Positions 3,318-47,427 of a stretch of 52,676 bases of DNA are shown in pieces. Both the position numbers and the translations under genes were made by a program. The number at the start of each line of letters is the position of its first letter. The first letter of the stretch is position 1. Origin of the DNA: a virus (lineage: Duplodnaviria > Caudoviricetes); IMG/VR virus record IMGVR_UViG_3300007346_005272, positions 1 through 52,676 of that record, one strand, 5' to 3'. Under the pieces are notes generated by a model. The model did no database searches, had not been told where the DNA came from, and saw nothing but the letters and a program-made list of their open reading frames with translations.

Positions 3318-6300
3318 TTATGTAGCGCCAGTTATAGCCGAAAGCGCAACTCCACCACGCTCAAGGGTAAACGTGCCATCAGTAACAGTAATTCCCTCTG
3401 TTCTAAGATAATTAATATCTGCAGCGATCGCTGCAAGCGAAATATTTCTCTCATTATCCAACGTCTCATCCATATCGAAGAAACCTGACTCTGCTAGAGA
3501 CCTAAGAAGAATAGCACTAGTGTCGGCACCTGCGTTGGCGGTCTCTACTTGGGTAAACAAGTCTGCTGTACTGAACCGCACGGCGTCGTAGCCGCTCATC
3601 CCCAATTCAGCGAGCAAAGCTTTCCTGATAGCGTAATTAGACTTACCAGTCGGAGCAACCCCTGCATCTTCAAGACTCGCAAATCTTTCAGAACCAGTCA
3701 AACCACTACTAAGATTAAGTGCCCCACGAATCGCAGACCGTTCAGCAAGAAACGTCTCAATACCACGAAGCTCGCCAGTGCCCGGTGTCCCAATAATTCG
3801 GTCATCTCCAGCAAACTGCATAATTCGCTCTAACGGAATAGCGTAAGCCTGACTCATAGCGGTAGCTGATTCAAGCGTACCAGACGCCAGCATCGCCATA
3901 AGCGTCTCCTGATTATCTGTAGACAAGTGACCCATAACTTGTTCCATAAGCTCAAAGTTTGAAGAAAAGCCTGCAACGTCAGGAGACACACCCATGACTA
4001 CTTCATACGCCGCAAACGCTTCAAATGCGTCACGAACCAAGTCAACAGTTAACTTATCAGCATTAGCTAACGTAGTAAACGCTGCGTTCGCCGTGGCTCT
4101 AGCTTCCGCCTGCCCCAACGGTGAAGTAGAAAAACTAGGGAAAAACGCACGGTTTCTGTCAATCAAAGGAAGCATCTGCGCTGCAAAAACGGCAGTAGCG
4201 CCTGCAGCGTTCATCAAACCATCAGCTAAATCAATCCCCAACGAGTCCGCAACAGACTCAATTTCCTCACTTGTCATCTGTGTCGTACGTTTCAGCATCT
4301 GCAGGTTCGACTCAAAGTTAAGGCTTTCTTCTTCCCACATCTCAAACGTACGTTTAAGTTCTTGGCCCAGAGGACCCACTCCGGTCAAGGCATCATAAAA
4401 TTCTTGATCGTTAAGTACTGATAAATCTTTGCCTTGTGATTGGAAAAATGCGGTCAGGTCTTTCGCTGCTTGAGACTCTCTATCAAAGAAGAAACGCTCT
4501 TCACCGTAAAATGAATTACCAAAGCTTACAGTATCGTTCACAAAGTAATTGAGCTTTTCAAAAAAGCCGCCGCCTCCGTTACCTCTAGTCTCACCAAACA
4601 AGATATCATTATAAACAATGTCCCTCTCCGTCGTATCTATCAAATCTCTGTAACTTTGCCGAAGGGCACGACCCTCTTCCCGCCTAGCCCTAAAATCTGC
4701 GAAAGACCCGCCACCCAAAGACATATCTCGTAAAGAAAGTACCGCACCAGAAACAGCATCTTCAGCACGAGCTGCCCGAGCGTTCTCACCCAAAATGCCA
4801 GTTATGGAAGCAGCCAGCAAACCAGCCGCAGCACCAACAGCCATACCCGGCAGTCCAAACGAAGAACCCATCATAACGCCGCCACCAATCATGGCTGCTG
4901 TGTTACCGCCACTTGGTCCCGACTGAAGAGTGTTTAACCCTCCCATCAGACCAATCGACCCACCCATAAGCATCGTGCCGTTTCTCGTACCAGTCAAAAA
5001 GTTAACCCCACTCCGGGCACCCTCAGCAATCTCAACACGGTTCTTAATCAACTTGCCAACAGCCATAGGGTTCTTCAAGCCCAGGAACAACCCCAACAGG
5101 CCCAAACCGCCAGCAGCACCACCAATCTTACCAATACCCATAAGAGCACCAATAACCCTAGCAAGATGACCAACAACAGGAGCAACAATATCGTTCAAAA
5201 CAGCAGCTAAACCAGACACCGCATTAGGAAGCTGCTCTAAAATAGGCATCAACGCCTCTAAAAACTTACCAATCGCCGGAATAAAATCAGAAGCAACCCG
5301 ATTCATAATATCTGAAAACAAATCTAACTTACCAAAGAACCCTGACTGACCCGCTTTCAACAAATCAAAAATAGCGCCAAACACGTTACCAATAGACGCA
5401 CCAAACGTCTGGAAAGCCTCAGCGTTCTTAACAACCAAATCACTAAACGACCTAAACAAACCACGACCGCCACCCGTAGCGCCCATGGCCCTAAACATCT
5501 CAATAACCACATCAGCAGCAGGCTCAAACTGAACCAAGAACGCTCCAATACCACGGAAGAAATCACGCACACTCCGGAAGAATCCTACGAAGCTTTCACC
5601 CATCTGCTCAATGTTTTCAAGATGATCAAAGATGTTACTCCGAATGAAGTCAATCGTTTTCTCAACAAGAGTGACCAACGTGGGGGCGAACGAATCCGCA
5701 CCAAAACGTTGAATAAGTAGCGACATGCCCACGAAGTTTTCACGAATAATCCTGGCCATGTCCATCATTGCGTCACGGAACGGGTTCAGAAGCGGCTGAC
5801 CCATATCCGCAAACATGTTCTTCATGCCTGAAAATTCTGTTTTAGCCGTACCGATAAACGTACCGGCAAGTCCAGCGCCTACGCCCCGATAATTTTCAGA
5901 TACGATAGATCCGCTGGAAAGTGCAGCCAGTAGCTGATTTGTTGAAAGACCCTCTTGTAAAGACCCTGACCGGAACCCGGCAGCACCACTGAGTGCTGAA
6001 CGTAATTCTGCAGAGTCTTTAGAACCGATTGCTTTTGCAATTGCTTGAACGGCTGCAGCGTCTCCGCCGGTCAGGTTAACGAGCTGACGTGCGATACCAC
6101 CCGAGGCTGTCGGTGAAACTCCTGCTTTTGCGAGACCTGCCAACAGGGCGGTTGTGGCTTCACCACCAAGAAGACCTGTTGTTCTAGAACCAAGGCTACG
6201 GCTAAGCAAAGCTGAGTTTTGAGCACCACGACGAGTCATGCCGCCCCCAACAGACGGGATAAGCATCGCTTCATTAAACTGACGTAAAGCTGCCGCAGCA

Positions 6301-19482: not shown

Positions 19483-19953
19483 CTAATCTGCCATTTGCTT
19501 CAAAAAGCTACCGTCCAACAGCATCAAACCAATCGTGGAATAGCCAACAATGTCCAGATAGGTGTCCTCCACCGCCTCATTCTCTGGCAGACGGCCAGAA
19601 TCTAGCAGATTTTCCAAACGTGCAACCTTGTCATGGAGACGCACAATCAGACCACGGTGCCCGAACCTGAGAATGTTTTCAGAACCATAATCTCGCTGCT
19701 TATTACAGAGCGTTTGCCACACAAAATCCTTGTCTAGCGAAATATCGGCATGCTTGGTCATTGCCGCTAGCTGAAACCAAACCTCAGGATCAACCAACTC
19801 CTTATTGCCGACAAAATAAGTCTCAATCAGCGAATCAATATACTCCCGAATGTCTTCAACCGTAGTTACCTGAGACGACTCGGCCACCCACACGCTGTCA
19901 ATATGTGTCAACGCATGATCTTCCCACGTCAACAAATCGTCAATTACGGTCAT
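19483..19953 (-). CDS. MazG-like nucleotide-modification-associated protein (DUF1599-like)
   Basis: KQRDYGSENI...GLIVRLHDKVARLENL...EAVEDTYLDIVGYS. Confidence 0.75.
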   Translation of the reverse strand: MTVIDDLLTWEDHALTHIDSVWVAESSQVTTVEDIREYIDSLIETYFVGNKELVDPEVWFQLAAMTKHADISLDKDFVWQTLCNKQRDYGSENILRFGHRGLIVRLHDKVARLENLLDSGRLPENEAVEDTYLDIVGYSTIGLMLLDGSFLKQMAD

Positions 19954-20264
19954 GACTTCGCACCCTTCGACATGCTGAGCTTAATTGAAAACAGAATCCA
20001 GAGAATAGATGAAACTAGAAAAGCGTCCGTGTAGCCGATGCCGGGGCGGAACGCCATCAAGTTAGGCCACGCAGAATTAGCAATGCTGTTCAAAAACATC
20101 AGACCCAAAGCGCCCGTGCCTGCAAGAAAAGCAAAACCGAAAATACTCTGCAAAACCGTGATAAGCACTGCCTGCTTGACTACCTGCTGAACATTCTCCT
20201 CCAACTCTGTCGAAAGCTTACCGGTGAACCGGCCCCAATCTTCAGCGCCTTGCCTATTTACCAT
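19950..20264 (-). CDS. Small membrane protein (about 2 transmembrane segments)
   Basis: Two long hydrophobic stretches; ATGA overlap with the next gene. Confidence 0.65.
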   Translation of the reverse strand: MVNRQGAEDWGRFTGKLSTELEENVQQVVKQAVLITVLQSIFGFAFLAGTGALGLMFLNSIANSAWPNLMAFRPGIGYTDAFLVSSILWILFSIKLSMSKGAKS

Positions 20265-20643
20265 TTTCGTATTCCTTTACTATCTGGTGAACCCGCTGAC
20301 GGGACAACCTATACCGAGCACCGATCTTAGCTAACGTCTCACCGTTATAGTACTCGCTATAAATCTGACTATTTCTTTCTGCAATAAAATCCTTCGACTT
20401 CGGTCCCGGTCTGACAGGACCCCAAGTCCAAGAAGAAAGACTTTCTAACAACTGAATCCGGTTAGTAGCCAATGCGTTCTGCTTATATCTCGTCCGCATA
20501 TAACTAACCCAATTGCCTAAACTGATACATTCCCCCGAGTCTAAAAACTCTACGTGATCTGTAGGCACAATAGCGTCACCATAGCGTTTCTCATATGCGC
20601 ATAGGGCCTCGTAATGCTTATGCCATCGCTGTTCATGCCTCAT
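20254..20643 (-). CDS. Helicase-associated (HA) domain plus sigma70-region-4-like HTH protein
   Basis: W...YEAL..Y....G...VP...LGNWV..MR..Y...L...RIQLLESL..W.W; C-terminal TLAKIGARYRLSRQRVHQIV. Confidence 0.75.
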   Translation of the reverse strand: MRHEQRWHKHYEALCAYEKRYGDAIVPTDHVEFLDSGECISLGNWVSYMRTRYKQNALATNRIQLLESLSSWTWGPVRPGPKSKDFIAERNSQIYSEYYNGETLAKIGARYRLSRQRVHQIVKEYENGK

Positions 20644-20692: not shown

Positions 20693-21067
20693 CTAACGTG
20701 GCTTATACAAGCTAGCGTTAGCTACCTCACCAGCTAAAGACTTAATAGTCTTGTACGCATCTTGACTGCCAACCCGTTCGGACCAATCCACGATGTCTTC
20801 CCCAACAAACATCTCAATAGCTTCCCAACACCTGATAAAGTTAGCTCTTTTGTTAGCAGGGATATTATCTAAAAGTTCGTCAAAATTATTAGACAGGTTG
20901 CGCTCGGGCATCAAACCAACAAAGACAGCAATCGCTGCAGGCAAAGAAAGCCGCTTCTCATCATCTATCGGAACAGTCTCCGCTAAGCCATGCTTACAAC
21001 AAGCTGCAACCATAAGCAACTCATGCTGCACACCATGAAGCCTTAAATCTCTCAAAGAAAAAGCCAT
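20693..21067 (-). CDS. Hypothetical protein (start reassigned to MAFSLRDL)
   Basis: The longer ORF-track start runs through a terminator; TTGACT-18-TATGAT-6-ATG supports 21067. Confidence 0.6.
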   Translation of the reverse strand: MAFSLRDLRLHGVQHELLMVAACCKHGLAETVPIDDEKRLSLPAAIAVFVGLMPERNLSNNFDELLDNIPANKRANFIRCWEAIEMFVGEDIVDWSERVGSQDAYKTIKSLAGEVANASLYKPR

Positions 21068-21083
21068 ATGCATATCATAACGT

Positions 21084-21119
21084 AAAAAGCGGGGTTCAGT
21101 CAAACTGACCAAACCCCGC
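21084..21119 (-). terminator. Rho-independent terminator
   Basis: GCGGGGTTTGGTCA-GTT-TGACTGAACCCCGC followed by TTTTT. Confidence 0.85.
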
Positions 21120-21207
21120 CCTAGACGTGCGATTGCTTTTACGGCTACCGGCACGTTAGCCGATAATCACAATCTCCTCCTTCGGGGTTAGTCAAATTTG
21201 CCGGTAC
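21085..21207 (-). ncRNA. Candidate structured small RNA containing a 4-codon minigene
   Basis: TAAAGT box at 21214-21219; stem TACCGGCA/TGCCGGTA; competing stem ACGTGC/GCACGT; AGGAGG-5 nt-GTG ATT ATC GGC TAA; ends at a terminator. Confidence 0.4.
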
Positions 21208-21267
21208 ACAAATACTTTAACTTCCCAAATTACGCCAGATTGCAACTTTGCATATTATAATATCCCG

Positions 21268-21393
21268 TTATCTACCGCACCATGTTAGGAGTTTGTCGAT
21301 ATCCATTGCAGGCGTCTTCTCAATGCCGCCCACAACAATATTACAAATGTGGCACAGCAGTCCACGCACCTCGCCAGTATCGTGGTATAGCAT
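21268..21393 (-). pseudogene. Truncated endonuclease VII-family remnant
   Basis: Manual translation MLYHDTGEVRGLLCHICNIVVGGIEKTPAMDIDKLLTWCGR* keeps H.TG.VRGLLC..CN but lacks the N-terminal CxxC and the DH catalytic motif. Confidence 0.7.
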
Positions 21394-21428
21394 CAGAATG
21401 TACTGGTGGCGCTTACTACGCCACTAGG

Positions 21429-23378
21429 TCATCTCACGGGACAACTTCCCGTTGAGCATTCGGCGTCAAACTCATCGTCCGACATGATCGTGGAACCTGA
21501 CAGCTTCTCACCAAGCTGTGACGTAGTGCTGAGCACATGCTCGTACTCTTCCTTAGTCAACTCGCCCATCGGGGCCTGATCGAAACCATGCTCGCTGTGC
21601 AGCAAGAACGAAACGGACTTCATCTCGCTCCAATGCTCCGCAAGGTACTCACGAATACCATCAAGTTCTTCGCTCTTGTAGTAGACAGTCACCGAAATGG
21701 CGTTGTCTGACCACACCTTCTGGAGACGACGAACAAGGTCCATCTGCTCAATCGCAGTCATGTCCTTAGCTTCGATCGTCCCGTCAGGGAACGCACACGG
21801 GAACTCTACAACAACAGTCCGGTCATCTTCTGAGCCATCAAAGTTGCGGAGAGGCTCAACGTAGAAGCCCTTCGACTTGCAGTAGTTGACAAGAACGTCG
21901 GTGGAAGCCATACGCATACGCTTCACAAAGTACTGGCTAAAGCCGGGGTGAACGCCAGGGGTTACACCCGGAAGAAGGCTCAGCGTGCCAGAAGGCTTGA
22001 TCGTGGTAAGACGTACAGACTCAGGCCAGCCACGCTCTTCTGACCACTCGGCATCAAACTCACGCAGAGCGACATAGGTGTCGTCCAGCCAATCAATCTT
22101 TTCCATGGCCTGCGTCACGCCAGTGATACCTAGGCCGAGACGCATGTTTGTTGACGTGATCTTGTCTGAAGCAGGGTCAAGGTAAGACAGCGCCGCTGTC
22201 GCCTTCTGGACCTTGTACAGCAACTGAGACACGTCCTGAAGCTCTTCCGACGAGTCAATCATCGGCAAGAAAATCTCAGACAAGTTACAAGACTCACGGT
22301 TAGCCAACGGGATTTCAGCGCAAGGGTTGACGCCCACAATCGACGGATCGGGACGCTCTTCGCCCATACGCCCAAACTGGCGTGAAGCTTCGAGGTTGAA
22401 GAACCCGTACGGCTCACCATTACCCTTGTAGCCTTCCCAAATAAGCTCCGGCATGTCCTGCATCTGTTCCGGAGAAACGAAAACAGTGTTGTTTGACATG
22501 GCTCGCTCAATCGGAATATCGCCAAGGTCCCAACGCTTCGCCATCAGGTAATCTTCATCGTCTAGACGGCCAACAGCAATTTCAGCGCTGCGGCGAACGT
22601 TACCGGCGACAACGATAGAGCCAATGATGTTCATGCAGTCAAGAACCTCAACTGAAGTCATCGTGCGACCAACCGCACCGTCAAGAACGGCACAAATCTT
22701 CTCAATACCCGAAACGAGAATATCGGGACCTGAAGCAGTGCCGCCGAACGTCTTAATAGGTACACCCGCCTTGCGGATCAGGTGAGTAGCGTACGTCATC
22801 TTACGAGGATTGTCGTCGTCGCCCAAGTAGCACTCAAAGACCTTCCGGACTGCTTCGCCCCAACCCTCACGGGTATCAGGCACTATGAAATCAGAATCGT
22901 CAGCGTCATGATGCTCAACCCAAGCTGAACGAACAACACCCAGACGCTCAGGCTTATCGCAAGAGAAGCCCACACCGCCGCCAAGCATCAGCCGCTCTAC
23001 GGCCCAAGAAAAATCCGTGGGCTTCTGAACATCAACAAACCAGCAGTTGACCAGACTATCGCCACCCAAACGCTTGTTGTTCGGGGTACCCATCTGCCAA
23101 AGCATTCGGCCAGCAACGGAAGCCTTCAAGTTGAACAGATAGTCATAGAGGCGGACAGCCTCATCTTCCGACAACTGCGCCCCAATATCCTGAGCGCCGT
23201 TAACGACACGCTGAATCGTTTCGTGCCATTCCTCAGTACGAACAATTGTGTCGCCCTCAAAAATAGGGCGAGCATAGGTCCGCTTGTAAACAATATAGCC
23301 TAATCCGTTAAATCCCCACGGAGGCATCTTATCAGCATATGAGGCGGCATGGTCGTCGGAAATAAAAAAGGGGTCCAC
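21429..23378 (-). CDS. nrdJ: Class II (adenosylcobalamin-dependent) ribonucleotide reductase, RTPR-like
   Basis: YKRTYAR, LVNCWF, GGGVGF, VVAGNVRRSAEI, NPCAEI, ESCNLSE, TTIKPSGT and C-terminal CSTGSCP. Confidence 0.93.
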   Translation of the reverse strand: MDPFFISDDHAASYADKMPPWGFNGLGYIVYKRTYARPIFEGDTIVRTEEWHETIQRVVNGAQDIGAQLSEDEAVRLYDYLFNLKASVAGRMLWQMGTPNNKRLGGDSLVNCWFVDVQKPTDFSWAVERLMLGGGVGFSCDKPERLGVVRSAWVEHHDADDSDFIVPDTREGWGEAVRKVFECYLGDDDNPRKMTYATHLIRKAGVPIKTFGGTASGPDILVSGIEKICAVLDGAVGRTMTSVEVLDCMNIIGSIVVAGNVRRSAEIAVGRLDDEDYLMAKRWDLGDIPIERAMSNNTVFVSPEQMQDMPELIWEGYKGNGEPYGFFNLEASRQFGRMGEERPDPSIVGVNPCAEIPLANRESCNLSEIFLPMIDSSEELQDVSQLLYKVQKATAALSYLDPASDKITSTNMRLGLGITGVTQAMEKIDWLDDTYVALREFDAEWSEERGWPESVRLTTIKPSGTLSLLPGVTPGVHPGFSQYFVKRMRMASTDVLVNYCKSKGFYVEPLRNFDGSEDDRTVVVEFPCAFPDGTIEAKDMTAIEQMDLVRRLQKVWSDNAISVTVYYKSEELDGIREYLAEHWSEMKSVSFLLHSEHGFDQAPMGELTKEEYEHVLSTTSQLGEKLSGSTIMSDDEFDAECSTGSCPVR

Positions 23379-24287: not shown

Positions 24288-24324
24288 AAGAAAACCCCCG
24301 GCCCAAACGGACCGGGGGTTCTCA
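24288..24324 (-). terminator. Rho-independent terminator after the major capsid gene
   Basis: GAGAACCCCCGGTCC-GTTT-GGGCCGGGGGTTTTC followed by TTATT; a second small hairpin lies at about 24335-24352. Confidence 0.85.
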
Positions 24325-47076: not shown

Positions 47077-47427
47077 CTAAAACTTTACTTGCGATCTGAC
47101 ATTTGCTGCAATCGTGCGCAAGGCATCGCAGGCAGTGCGTAATGAATGAAGACGTTCACGCTTCGCTTTAACCAACGCTTCAGCGATCATAGAATCGTAC
47201 TGAAGATCGCTTGTCTTGTAACCCGCCCAGCTTTCTTTCTGCTTCACGGCACCTTCCGCTGCTAGATATTCCTTATACCAAGCGCTCTTGTAAGACGCTT
47301 CTTTTTGGGCATGATCCTTGCACAGGATCTCAAATGCTTCAGTTTCTTGCTCAATTTCACCAATCAAGCGGACAAGTTCAGACTCAACTTCAACCTGACT
47401 GATTGGCGCAGTTCTCGTACTATTCAT
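47077..47427 (-). CDS. Helical hypothetical protein
   Basis: 116 aa, coiled-coil pattern; TAGAAT-6 nt-ATG upstream. Confidence 0.65.
   Translation of the reverse strand: MNSTRTAPISQVEVESELVRLIGEIEQETEAFEILCKDHAQKEASYKSAWYKEYLAAEGAVKQKESWAGYKTSDLQYDSMIAEALVKAKRERLHSLRTACDALRTIAANVRSQVKF

Follow-up and report, generated by a model that had tools for sequence, protein, structure and literature searches.

The tailed-phage contig IMGVR_UViG_3300007346_005272, analyzed over its whole 52,676 nt (hereafter the window), carries on its minus strand a short element between a ribonucleotide reductase (RNR) gene and a small gene for a 124-aa protein. The element is predicted to be transcribed as an RNA unit of ~123 nt, from 21207 to ~21085, and contains a Shine–Dalgarno (SD) sequence, an open reading frame (ORF) of only four sense codons, a covarying hairpin and an intrinsic terminator. 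Comparison of related sequences argues that the element is real and under selection in a group of uncultured tailed phages. We infer that the conserved RNA core is a working translation-initiation region that binds ribosomes, and the tiny ORF most likely acts by ribosome loading and not through its peptide, as judged from the way it varies among relatives. The best reading of the whole, to which we give somewhat less than an even chance, is that of a ribosome-loaded leader, or attenuator, ahead of the downstream gene.

Related loci were gathered through the downstream protein, RNR, a degenerate DNA pattern, and a profile of the downstream protein family. The pattern search returned 32 IMG/VR contigs, 33 metagenome contigs, and one genome match. 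The element was found by nhmmer in 103 of the 130 loci, amounting to 44 distinct sequences; the other 27 comprise RNR relatives at a greater distance or chance matches to the pattern. Forty-two distinct full-length sequences were used for the covariation analysis, and 43 sequences for the promoter and SD counts. A covariance model scored all 43 full-length sequences at 64–148 bits (51–148 bits including later-found members) and detected the element in 12 of 12 further loci reached via the downstream protein. Beyond the full-length set, it recovered a cut copy (L101) at 94 bits and otherwise terminator-like matches of at most 21 bits. A pattern match in a Fimbriimonadaceae metagenome-assembled genome, the sole one in 185,579 prokaryote species genomes, is taken as chance because the covariance model does not recognize it. 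The element is present as a single copy in each of five large records, and at the nucleotide level it is as well conserved as the flanking ORFs or better (in L038, 91% identity for the element vs. 72% for RNR and 64% for the next ORF).

A first-pass annotation of the window, made from the sequence alone, had proposed a structured RNA of ~120 nt here. This unit is indeed conserved in relatives, with a −10 box, a terminator, an SD, and, in 41 of 43 sequences, a four-codon ORF, and all of the motifs that it named lie on the minus strand where it had placed them, including TAAAGT at 21219–21214. None of the covariance models of Rfam 15 matched the window at its gathering score, and a permissive scan of 20900–21500 (E ≤ 10) gave chance-level matches only, the best being asX6 with 18.9 bits against a gathering score of 50. 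ARAGORN found no tRNA or tmRNA genes in the window or in five related loci. Literature searches, aimed at known analogues and not at the element itself, listed no paper describing it, so that its absence from print rests mainly on the Rfam null result.

Structure of the RNA unit

The −10 box TAAAGT (TAnnnT, 21219–21214) of the predicted RNA promoter has T44, A45, and T49 invariant in 43 of 43 sequences. The predicted transcription start is the G of GUACCGG at 21207, the seventh base past the box, where the invariant block TGTACCGG begins. TAnnnT lies 6–7 nt before the invariant GUACCGG, also in seven of seven divergent members read by eye. Folding of a 181-nt stretch gives a z-score of −4.4, and that of the 124-nt RNA one of −3.2. 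Hairpin P2 (21174–21131) consists of an outer helix, GAUUGU (21174–21169) with GCAAUC (21136–21131), and an inner helix, CGGCUA (21162–21157) with UAGCCG (21147–21142), which is closed by an apical loop (21156–21148). In the comparative alignment, these helices read GAUUGU/GCAAUC and UAUCGGYUA/UARCCGAUA, and eight of the nine inner pairs and three of the six outer pairs have changed on both sides. The strong terminator reported in the first-pass annotation is a hairpin of 17 bp with a 3-nt loop (21122–21086) followed by a U run (the whole at 21122–21084). Such a hairpin, 14–17 bp long and followed by a U-rich tail, is common to all members; of its 14 pairs, 9 have changed on both sides. Covariation, which had been put forward as a check, is thus found in both P2 and the terminator. 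Over the whole structure, 94.8% of the cells pair, compared with 27–49% when the register is slid, and none of 500 shuffles reached the observed covariation.

G–U cells far outnumber A–C cells, by 71 to 2 in P2 and by 91 to 0 in the terminator (35 distinct rows, alignment A5); hence, the structure is that of an RNA of the gene-sense strand and not of a DNA palindrome. The same counts bear on the explanation that there is no RNA element, and that the region is a decayed gene start, a DNA site (origin, operator, or packaging), or a part of the RNR 3′ untranslated region. Inverted and direct repeats are present, and in some genomes the element follows the RNR gene directly, as such an explanation would have it. 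However, its G–U pairs would become A–C on the other strand, the upstream neighbor is not always RNR, and the 27 more distant RNR loci lack the element. Nor does any of the 42 distinct sequences contain a longer homologous ORF: a longer gene that is intact elsewhere had been considered in the first-pass annotation, but none starts at this SD in relatives, where the longest frames are 10 codons (L160) and 14 codons for a poorly spaced GTG (L034). We consider this explanation very improbable.

The first-pass annotation had also paired TACCGGCA (21206–21199) with TGCCGGTA (21153–21146) around the SD and the tiny ORF. The complementarity stands, with 8 nt matching at 100% and 45 nt between the two strands, but the pairing is weakly supported. 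The 5′-terminal strand of this helix (P1), UACCGGCA (21206–21199), and the loop strand UGCCGG (21153–21148) can form either a pseudoknot or an alternative long-range helix through CCGGCA/UGCCGG. Both the 5′ CCGG and the loop GCCGG are invariant in 42 of 42 sequences, and the CCGG core is uninformative on the pairing because it never varies; the flanking pair 14–67 is C–G in 32 sequences, A–U in two, and unpaired in eight, so that comparison lends the 5′-end/loop pairing weak support. The two folds are energetically close: the minimum free energy (MFE) fold of L010 takes the 8-bp long-range helix instead of P2, which the others adopt. P2 and the long-range helix conflict at the UA of UGCCGGUA, and covariation there follows P2 (L034). 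The mutually exclusive fold that had been suggested for the 3′ arm, ACGTGC (21156–21151) with GCACGT (21130–21125), is present in the window but limited to its own near-identical clade and not conserved. The conserved competitor or partner of TACCGGCA/TGCCGGTA is instead the covarying hairpin CGGYUA/UARCCG plus GAUUGU/GCAAUC. A small hairpin in the promoter region, UUGC/GYAA, was rejected when the alignment was read by eye, with a G–A mismatch in most sequences.

The ribosome-binding site and the tiny ORF

The SD AAGGAGG (21182–21176) has its GGAG core in 43 of 43 sequences and no conserved pairing partner. In two clades, the motif is located 1 nt further upstream of GUG, which an SD tolerates and a structured protein site would not. 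The −10 box lies ~30 nt upstream of the SD, and the tiny ORF starts 5–7 nt past it. The sequence AGGAGG-AGATT-GTG ATT ATC GGC TAA was confirmed at 21181–21156, with the ORF itself (GTG ATT ATC GGC TAA, four sense codons and a stop; 21170–21156) within the 5′ arm of P2. AAGGAGG occurs five times in the window against 5.99 expected, which is chance level, and the full heptamer precedes no long ORF's start there. The statement that an SD match among the window's best heads no real protein holds, because the element's copy is the sole one of the five that lies 5–9 nt before a start codon outside a long ORF.

The ORF reads GTG-NNN-ATC-GGY-TAA/TGA in 41 of 43 sequences; codon 2 is free (ATT, TTT, GAT, AAT, GAG, or GAA) and the remaining codons lie in helices. 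Six lineages have lost the usual frame, and four of them carry another ORF of 1–4 codons: AUG GUA UCG GCG UAG in L034 and L159; UUG UUU UAU CGG UGA in L164; (UUG) AUG UAG in L153 and L149, in a hairpin of wholly different sequence; and UUG UAG in L179 and L180. L160 carries a 10-codon frame, and L027 has the SD with neither a start codon nor a tiny ORF. In shuffled sequences, an ORF this short appears at a usable spacing in 8–15% per sequence. Four of six lineages is above this expectation, with a hand-computed binomial probability of ~0.003, a value to be read in light of the relatedness of the lineages and of the UUG that belongs to the conserved helix. Because the peptide is not conserved, ribosome occupancy is likely the selected property.

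A minigene RNA of this type might serve as a sink for ribosomes or tRNA, as had been suggested in the first-pass annotation, with re-initiation and peptidyl-tRNA drop-off favoring the leaderless mRNAs of the phage. The consensus SD, its good spacing, and the retention of 1–4-codon ORFs across lineages agree with such a role, and minigenes of 2–8 codons are reported to sequester tRNA, with drop-off and ribosome re-use rising as they shorten from eight to two codons (PMC2490762). The remark on leaderless mRNAs likewise fits the sequence: at least seven window genes show TAnnnT ending 6–7 nt before ATG, without an SD (starts at 47427, 44485, 24240, 21067, 20643, 16863, and 2503, all on the minus strand), two of them with TTGACA or TTGACT at 17–18 nt. 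However, these genes look like leaderless first genes of transcription units and nothing more, and the capsid gene (AAGGAGA) and most other phage genes are SD-led, so that a global sink would starve them too. A conserved helix encloses the start codon, a position unfavorable to high-rate translation, and the invariant blocks outside the SD would have no role. A tRNA-Ile sink in particular is argued from codon 2 (ATT), the only codon of the ORF that varies, and since codons differ between lineages they do not point to any one tRNA as the target. Each genome has a single copy, and no Pth gene was found in any of the five records searched, which is weak evidence as these are 35–74% complete. We therefore regard a sink as rather improbable.

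Linkage to the downstream gene and the case for attenuation

The gene that follows the element (20693–21067, minus strand) encodes a protein of 124 aa in the window and 117–121 aa in relatives, and is linked to the element in every relative carrying it. It was found by tblastn in 101 of the 103 element-bearing loci, the other two being cut contigs; conversely, all 46 IMG/VR contigs that encode the protein family carry the RNA element, which also occurs in additional metagenome contigs, and the family was never seen without it. The downstream neighbor is thus constant, whereas the upstream neighbor varies between an RNR stop codon, an Endonuclease_7 gene or remnant, and an AhpC/TSA gene, an arrangement that points to action in cis. 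The protein has conserved CWEAIE and EDIVxWSE motifs and no Pfam or PHROG match; Atlas scores reach at most 0.85 and are a lead only. It is modeled as all-helical (pLDDT 92.7), and at E ≤ 0.001 the PDB holds no match to the model, ToxN-like or other. The next gene (20254–20643, minus strand) encodes a helicase-associated (HA) domain and a helix-turn-helix (HTH) resembling Mor and sigma-70 region 4; its PHROG matches are late transcriptional activators, and it has a near-consensus leaderless promoter, TTGACA-17-TAAGAT.

The proposed attenuator would work as follows. The conserved block UUUGACUAACCCC (21196–21184), which is complementary to the 5′ arm of the terminator and a direct repeat of its 3′ arm, would supply the 5′ strand of an antiterminator: CUAACCCC, directly 5′ of the SD, would pair with the terminator 5′ arm. 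A ribosome held on the SD and the tiny ORF would cover CUAACCCC and allow the terminator to form, so that transcription would end just before the next gene and an RNA of ~123 nt would be released. If ribosome loading failed, the antiterminator would form, and the polymerase would read into the downstream genes for the 117–124-aa protein and the Mor-like HTH protein. We infer transcription, its start and end points, the function of the antiterminator, and the direction of the switch from sequence.

In RNAs truncated before the terminator 3′ arm, CUAACCCC pairs with the terminator 5′ arm in 40 of 42 MFE folds. The duplex is worth −12.8 to −18.2 kcal/mol, compared with −19 to −32 for the terminator, and 90% of its cells are paired. 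Two pairs show double changes: pair 25–116 changes from A–U to G–C in two sequences, and pair 22–119 is G–U, A–U, or G–C, with one non-pair. Several clades have an imperfect U tract, and weakness is common among regulated terminators. On these folds, the candidate antiterminator is plausible. A classical 2:3 antiterminator, in which the 3′ arm of P2 pairs with the terminator 5′ arm, was predicted in L034 and L159 only.

A number of observations weigh against attenuation. When the 5′ region is shuffled, at least eight pairs to the terminator 5′ arm still form in 75% of cases, and the energy gain of the antiterminator has a z of +0.5 to −2.2 against composition-matched shuffles; with such controls and a z near −1, the raw count of 40 of 42 has lost weight. 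The GGGG/CCCC core of the antiterminator never varies, and L034 and L159 lack the CUAACCCC block, with duplexes of only −4.5 and −5.0 kcal/mol. The ORF holds no regulatory codons: codons 3 and 4 are in a helix, and other lineages use unrelated codons. L027 has an SD without a start codon and L160 a 10-codon frame, and the helix housing the ORF explains much of the ORF's conservation. As for expression, 6–13% of the sampled words of the region were present in five RNA-library runs. Across four of these runs, a single 261-nt contig of a ~95% relative, from one RNA library, covers the element, at 20951–21214 (contig depths 2–6, DNA carry-over being possible); it crosses the terminator and extends 7 nt past the predicted start, and the transcript ends are predicted only.

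The downstream gene also has a promoter of its own, TTGACT-18-TATGAT (21103–21074, minus strand), with 10 of 12 consensus matches. Its −35 lies in the loop and the 3′ arm of the terminator, which fuses the RNA unit and the next gene physically; its ATG follows 6 nt after the −10 and has no SD, so that a leaderless mRNA is expected. Of the 14 relatives shown, 12 retain this −10 at the same distance from the ATG; the distance is 5 nt in L180, and L159 is ambiguous. A conserved leaderless promoter argues that read-through is not needed for expression, and read-through would yield a leadered mRNA that is poorly translatable. Because the terminator and the downstream promoter overlap, the linkage could be physical and not functional.

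This overlap would also suit a passive terminator or insulator cassette, which would end upstream transcription and shield the leaderless promoter, with a stabilizing 5′ region and with the SD and ORF as by-products of the hairpin. Most ORF positions do lie in covarying helices, and L027 has no start codon. However, such a cassette leaves unexplained the conserved −10 box ahead of the RNA, the SD that is kept in 43 of 43 sequences without a conserved pairing partner, the tiny ORFs that re-appear in other frames, and the invariant GUACCGG/GCCGG pair. We consider it improbable, although less so than a sink.

The main rival to attenuation is a stand-alone or dual-function small RNA (sRNA) acting in trans, in which the ~123-nt RNA is itself the product. 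The invariant single-stranded blocks (5′ GUACCGGCA, CUAACCCC, and loop GCCGG) would bind a target RNA or protein, and the ribosome site and tiny ORF would stabilize the RNA or gate its fold. The RNA has its own conserved −10 and terminator and a size typical of sRNAs, and its 5′ end is invariant, as seed regions typically are. Because the next gene has its own promoter, a role in cis is unnecessary, the linkage is explicable by the terminator loop being that gene's −35, and the RNA persists in L034 and L159, where the antiterminator block is missing. Action in trans has been reported for a terminated leader RNA, rnTrpL (PMC7968998), and ribosomes initiating at a strong SD are reported to shield RNA from RNase J1 (PMC5737220). 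On the other hand, the complements of the two conserved blocks match at chance level in the window (35% of the genome), and base-pairing sRNAs do not usually combine a selected SD with a tiny ORF that has been replaced several times over. The neighboring protein looks acidic-rich by eye and has no known fold, so that nothing marks it as an RNA-binding partner. We judge a trans-acting sRNA possible and less likely than the ribosome-loaded attenuator, which we retain as the best reading.

Comparison with known systems and genomic setting

The trp- and pyrBI-type leaders are transcription attenuators that depend on a ribosome at a leader ORF. Ribosome-dependent attenuators with short ORFs have been reported, mycobacteria included (10.1101/834739). 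The element resembles these leaders in its promoter-proximal short ORF with a ribosome-binding site, its hairpin, its intrinsic terminator before a fixed downstream gene, and a block able to pair with the terminator 5′ arm, here a candidate antiterminator. It differs in that its ORF has 1–4 codons without regulatory codons, the strand proposed for antitermination precedes the SD instead of following the ORF, and the downstream gene keeps a leaderless promoter inside the terminator. With the lambda bar and synthetic 2–8-codon minigenes, it shares a strong SD followed by a very short ORF with a meaningless peptide, lambda bar being likewise phage-borne. Unlike bar, the ORF lies within a conserved covarying hairpin of a defined small transcription unit and has neither an AUA codon nor a constant last codon across lineages, and its conservation across 42 distinct sequences implies a selected function. 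To our knowledge, no selected function has been shown for lambda bar.

The STAB-SD of cry3A and the SP82 stabilizer are 5′ stabilizers built on an orphan SD. For hbs mRNA, initiating ribosomes at a strong SD are reported to block RNase J1 and so protect the message (PMC5737220). In common with such stabilizers, the element has a consensus SD near the 5′ end that serves no real protein, and ribosome binding could protect its RNA against decay from the 5′ end. However, they protect a long downstream mRNA, whereas the RNA of the element ends ~90 nt later at the terminator and also maintains a start and a stop codon. In the case of Sinorhizobium meliloti, the attenuator-derived sRNA rnTrpL is reported to act in trans (PMC7968998, PMC7298713). 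The element is similarly a terminated leader RNA with a short ORF and could act in cis and in trans, but rnTrpL encodes a functional 14-aa peptide (peTrpL) and senses Trp codons, according to the same reports (PMC7968998, PMC7298713). There is no sequence or Rfam relation between the two.

The rpsO/S15 and alpha-operon/S4 leaders are pseudoknotted initiation regions of real genes, operated by a ribosomal protein. The element likewise places an SD and a start codon in a hairpin whose loop can pair with an upstream strand; in contrast, its pseudoknot covaries weakly and its ORF stops after four codons. In type III toxin–antitoxin systems (ToxIN), a promoter, a structured RNA, a terminator, and a small protein gene are inherited together, and the element shares this gene order, but the protein gene beside it has its own promoter. 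Two further observations speak against a type III system: no tandem repeat scored ≥30 in 20950–21450, and no ToxN-like fold was found.

The window is estimated to be 35% complete, and almost all of its genes are on the minus strand. Genes for a tail sheath, portal, protease, capsid, and terminase identify a contractile-tailed phage. Its capsid is nearest to those of Brevibacterium and Gordonia phages (46–48% identity), and the leaderless-type starts fit an actinobacterial-type host of this kind. INPHARED held no DNA match to the region and no protein match to the downstream gene, and RNR and capsid gave distant matches only, below 50% identity. A strong terminator-like hairpin of 15 bp (24290–24323, minus strand) separates the capsid gene from the next gene of leaderless type. 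A DUF1599 protein ("nucleotide modification associated domain 1"; 19483–19953, minus strand) is encoded three genes downstream of the element and, with RNR, forms a small nucleotide-metabolism island within the structural gene block.

The element sits in a 355-nt gap between the class II RNR gene (21429–23378) and the unknown ORF with its likely ATG at 21067. Of this gap, the first 160 nt are taken up by the remnant of an Endonuclease_7 homing endonuclease, its last ~41–52 codons (PF02945, E 4e-7; 21268–21426, minus strand), in which the position of the DHDH-type motif reads MLYH in the translation read by eye. L007 has an intact 201-aa Endonuclease_7 gene upstream of the element (5002–5607), L040 and L041 have a scar shorter than that of the window, and L001, L002, and L004 have neither gene nor remnant; in relatives without the endonuclease, the RNR stop codon abuts the element directly. 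By this comparison, the 3′ end of the RNR gene is a site of homing-endonuclease polymorphism. In L010-type relatives, a 170-aa AhpC/TSA (peroxiredoxin-like) gene lies between RNR and the element (L010, 2774–3286), and might be a reductant partner for the reductase. The sister clade L035/L036/L062, with an RNR 68% identical, lacks the element and has an unrelated region ~30–330 nt past the RNR stop, with a GGAGG-led ORF of ~38 codons.

Whatever adjoins it upstream (RNR stop codon, homing endonuclease gene or remnant, or AhpC-like gene), the unit begins with the A/T box TATTATAAT (21262–21254, minus strand), in which A2, T6, and A7 are invariant and T1, T3, and T4 nearly so among the 43 sequences. 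This 5′-edge box, taken as TTATAATATGCA (21249–21260, minus strand), repeats the −10 region of the downstream promoter, TTATGATATGCA (21069–21080, minus strand), at 92%. It is possibly a second upstream −10 or an UP-like element, and the repeat suggests either a second promoter ~45 nt upstream of the predicted start of the RNA or a past duplication. Between the two boxes, the block AAAGTTGCA (21249–21241, minus strand) has G17, T18, T19, G20, and C21 invariant or nearly so. In the rest of the window, its motif is about as frequent as expected (18 matches at ≤1 mismatch vs. 17), and the block may be a −35-like site, the spacer then being 20 nt, or a site for an activator.

Ribosome profiling and the lambda bar regions have revealed start-stop sites and ORFs of very few codons, which are usually dismissed as lacking evidence of selection. 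Here, a tiny ORF is kept across 42 distinct sequences and rebuilt in another frame after loss, inside a covarying RNA, which is comparative evidence that selection acts on ribosome loading and not on the peptide. The element defines a new RNA family for annotating uncultured phages with many leaderless-type promoters. If the attenuator reading holds, it would be a compact sensor of translation capacity. A bolder and, in our view, unlikely extension is that the ORF of 1–4 codons parks a ribosome beside the antiterminator strand, so that the leader measures free ribosome capacity during infection and switches transcription into the block of the Mor-like activator. If true, the element would be a translation-load timer for phage development, and the first natural "minigene" conserved in evolution to have a defined job.

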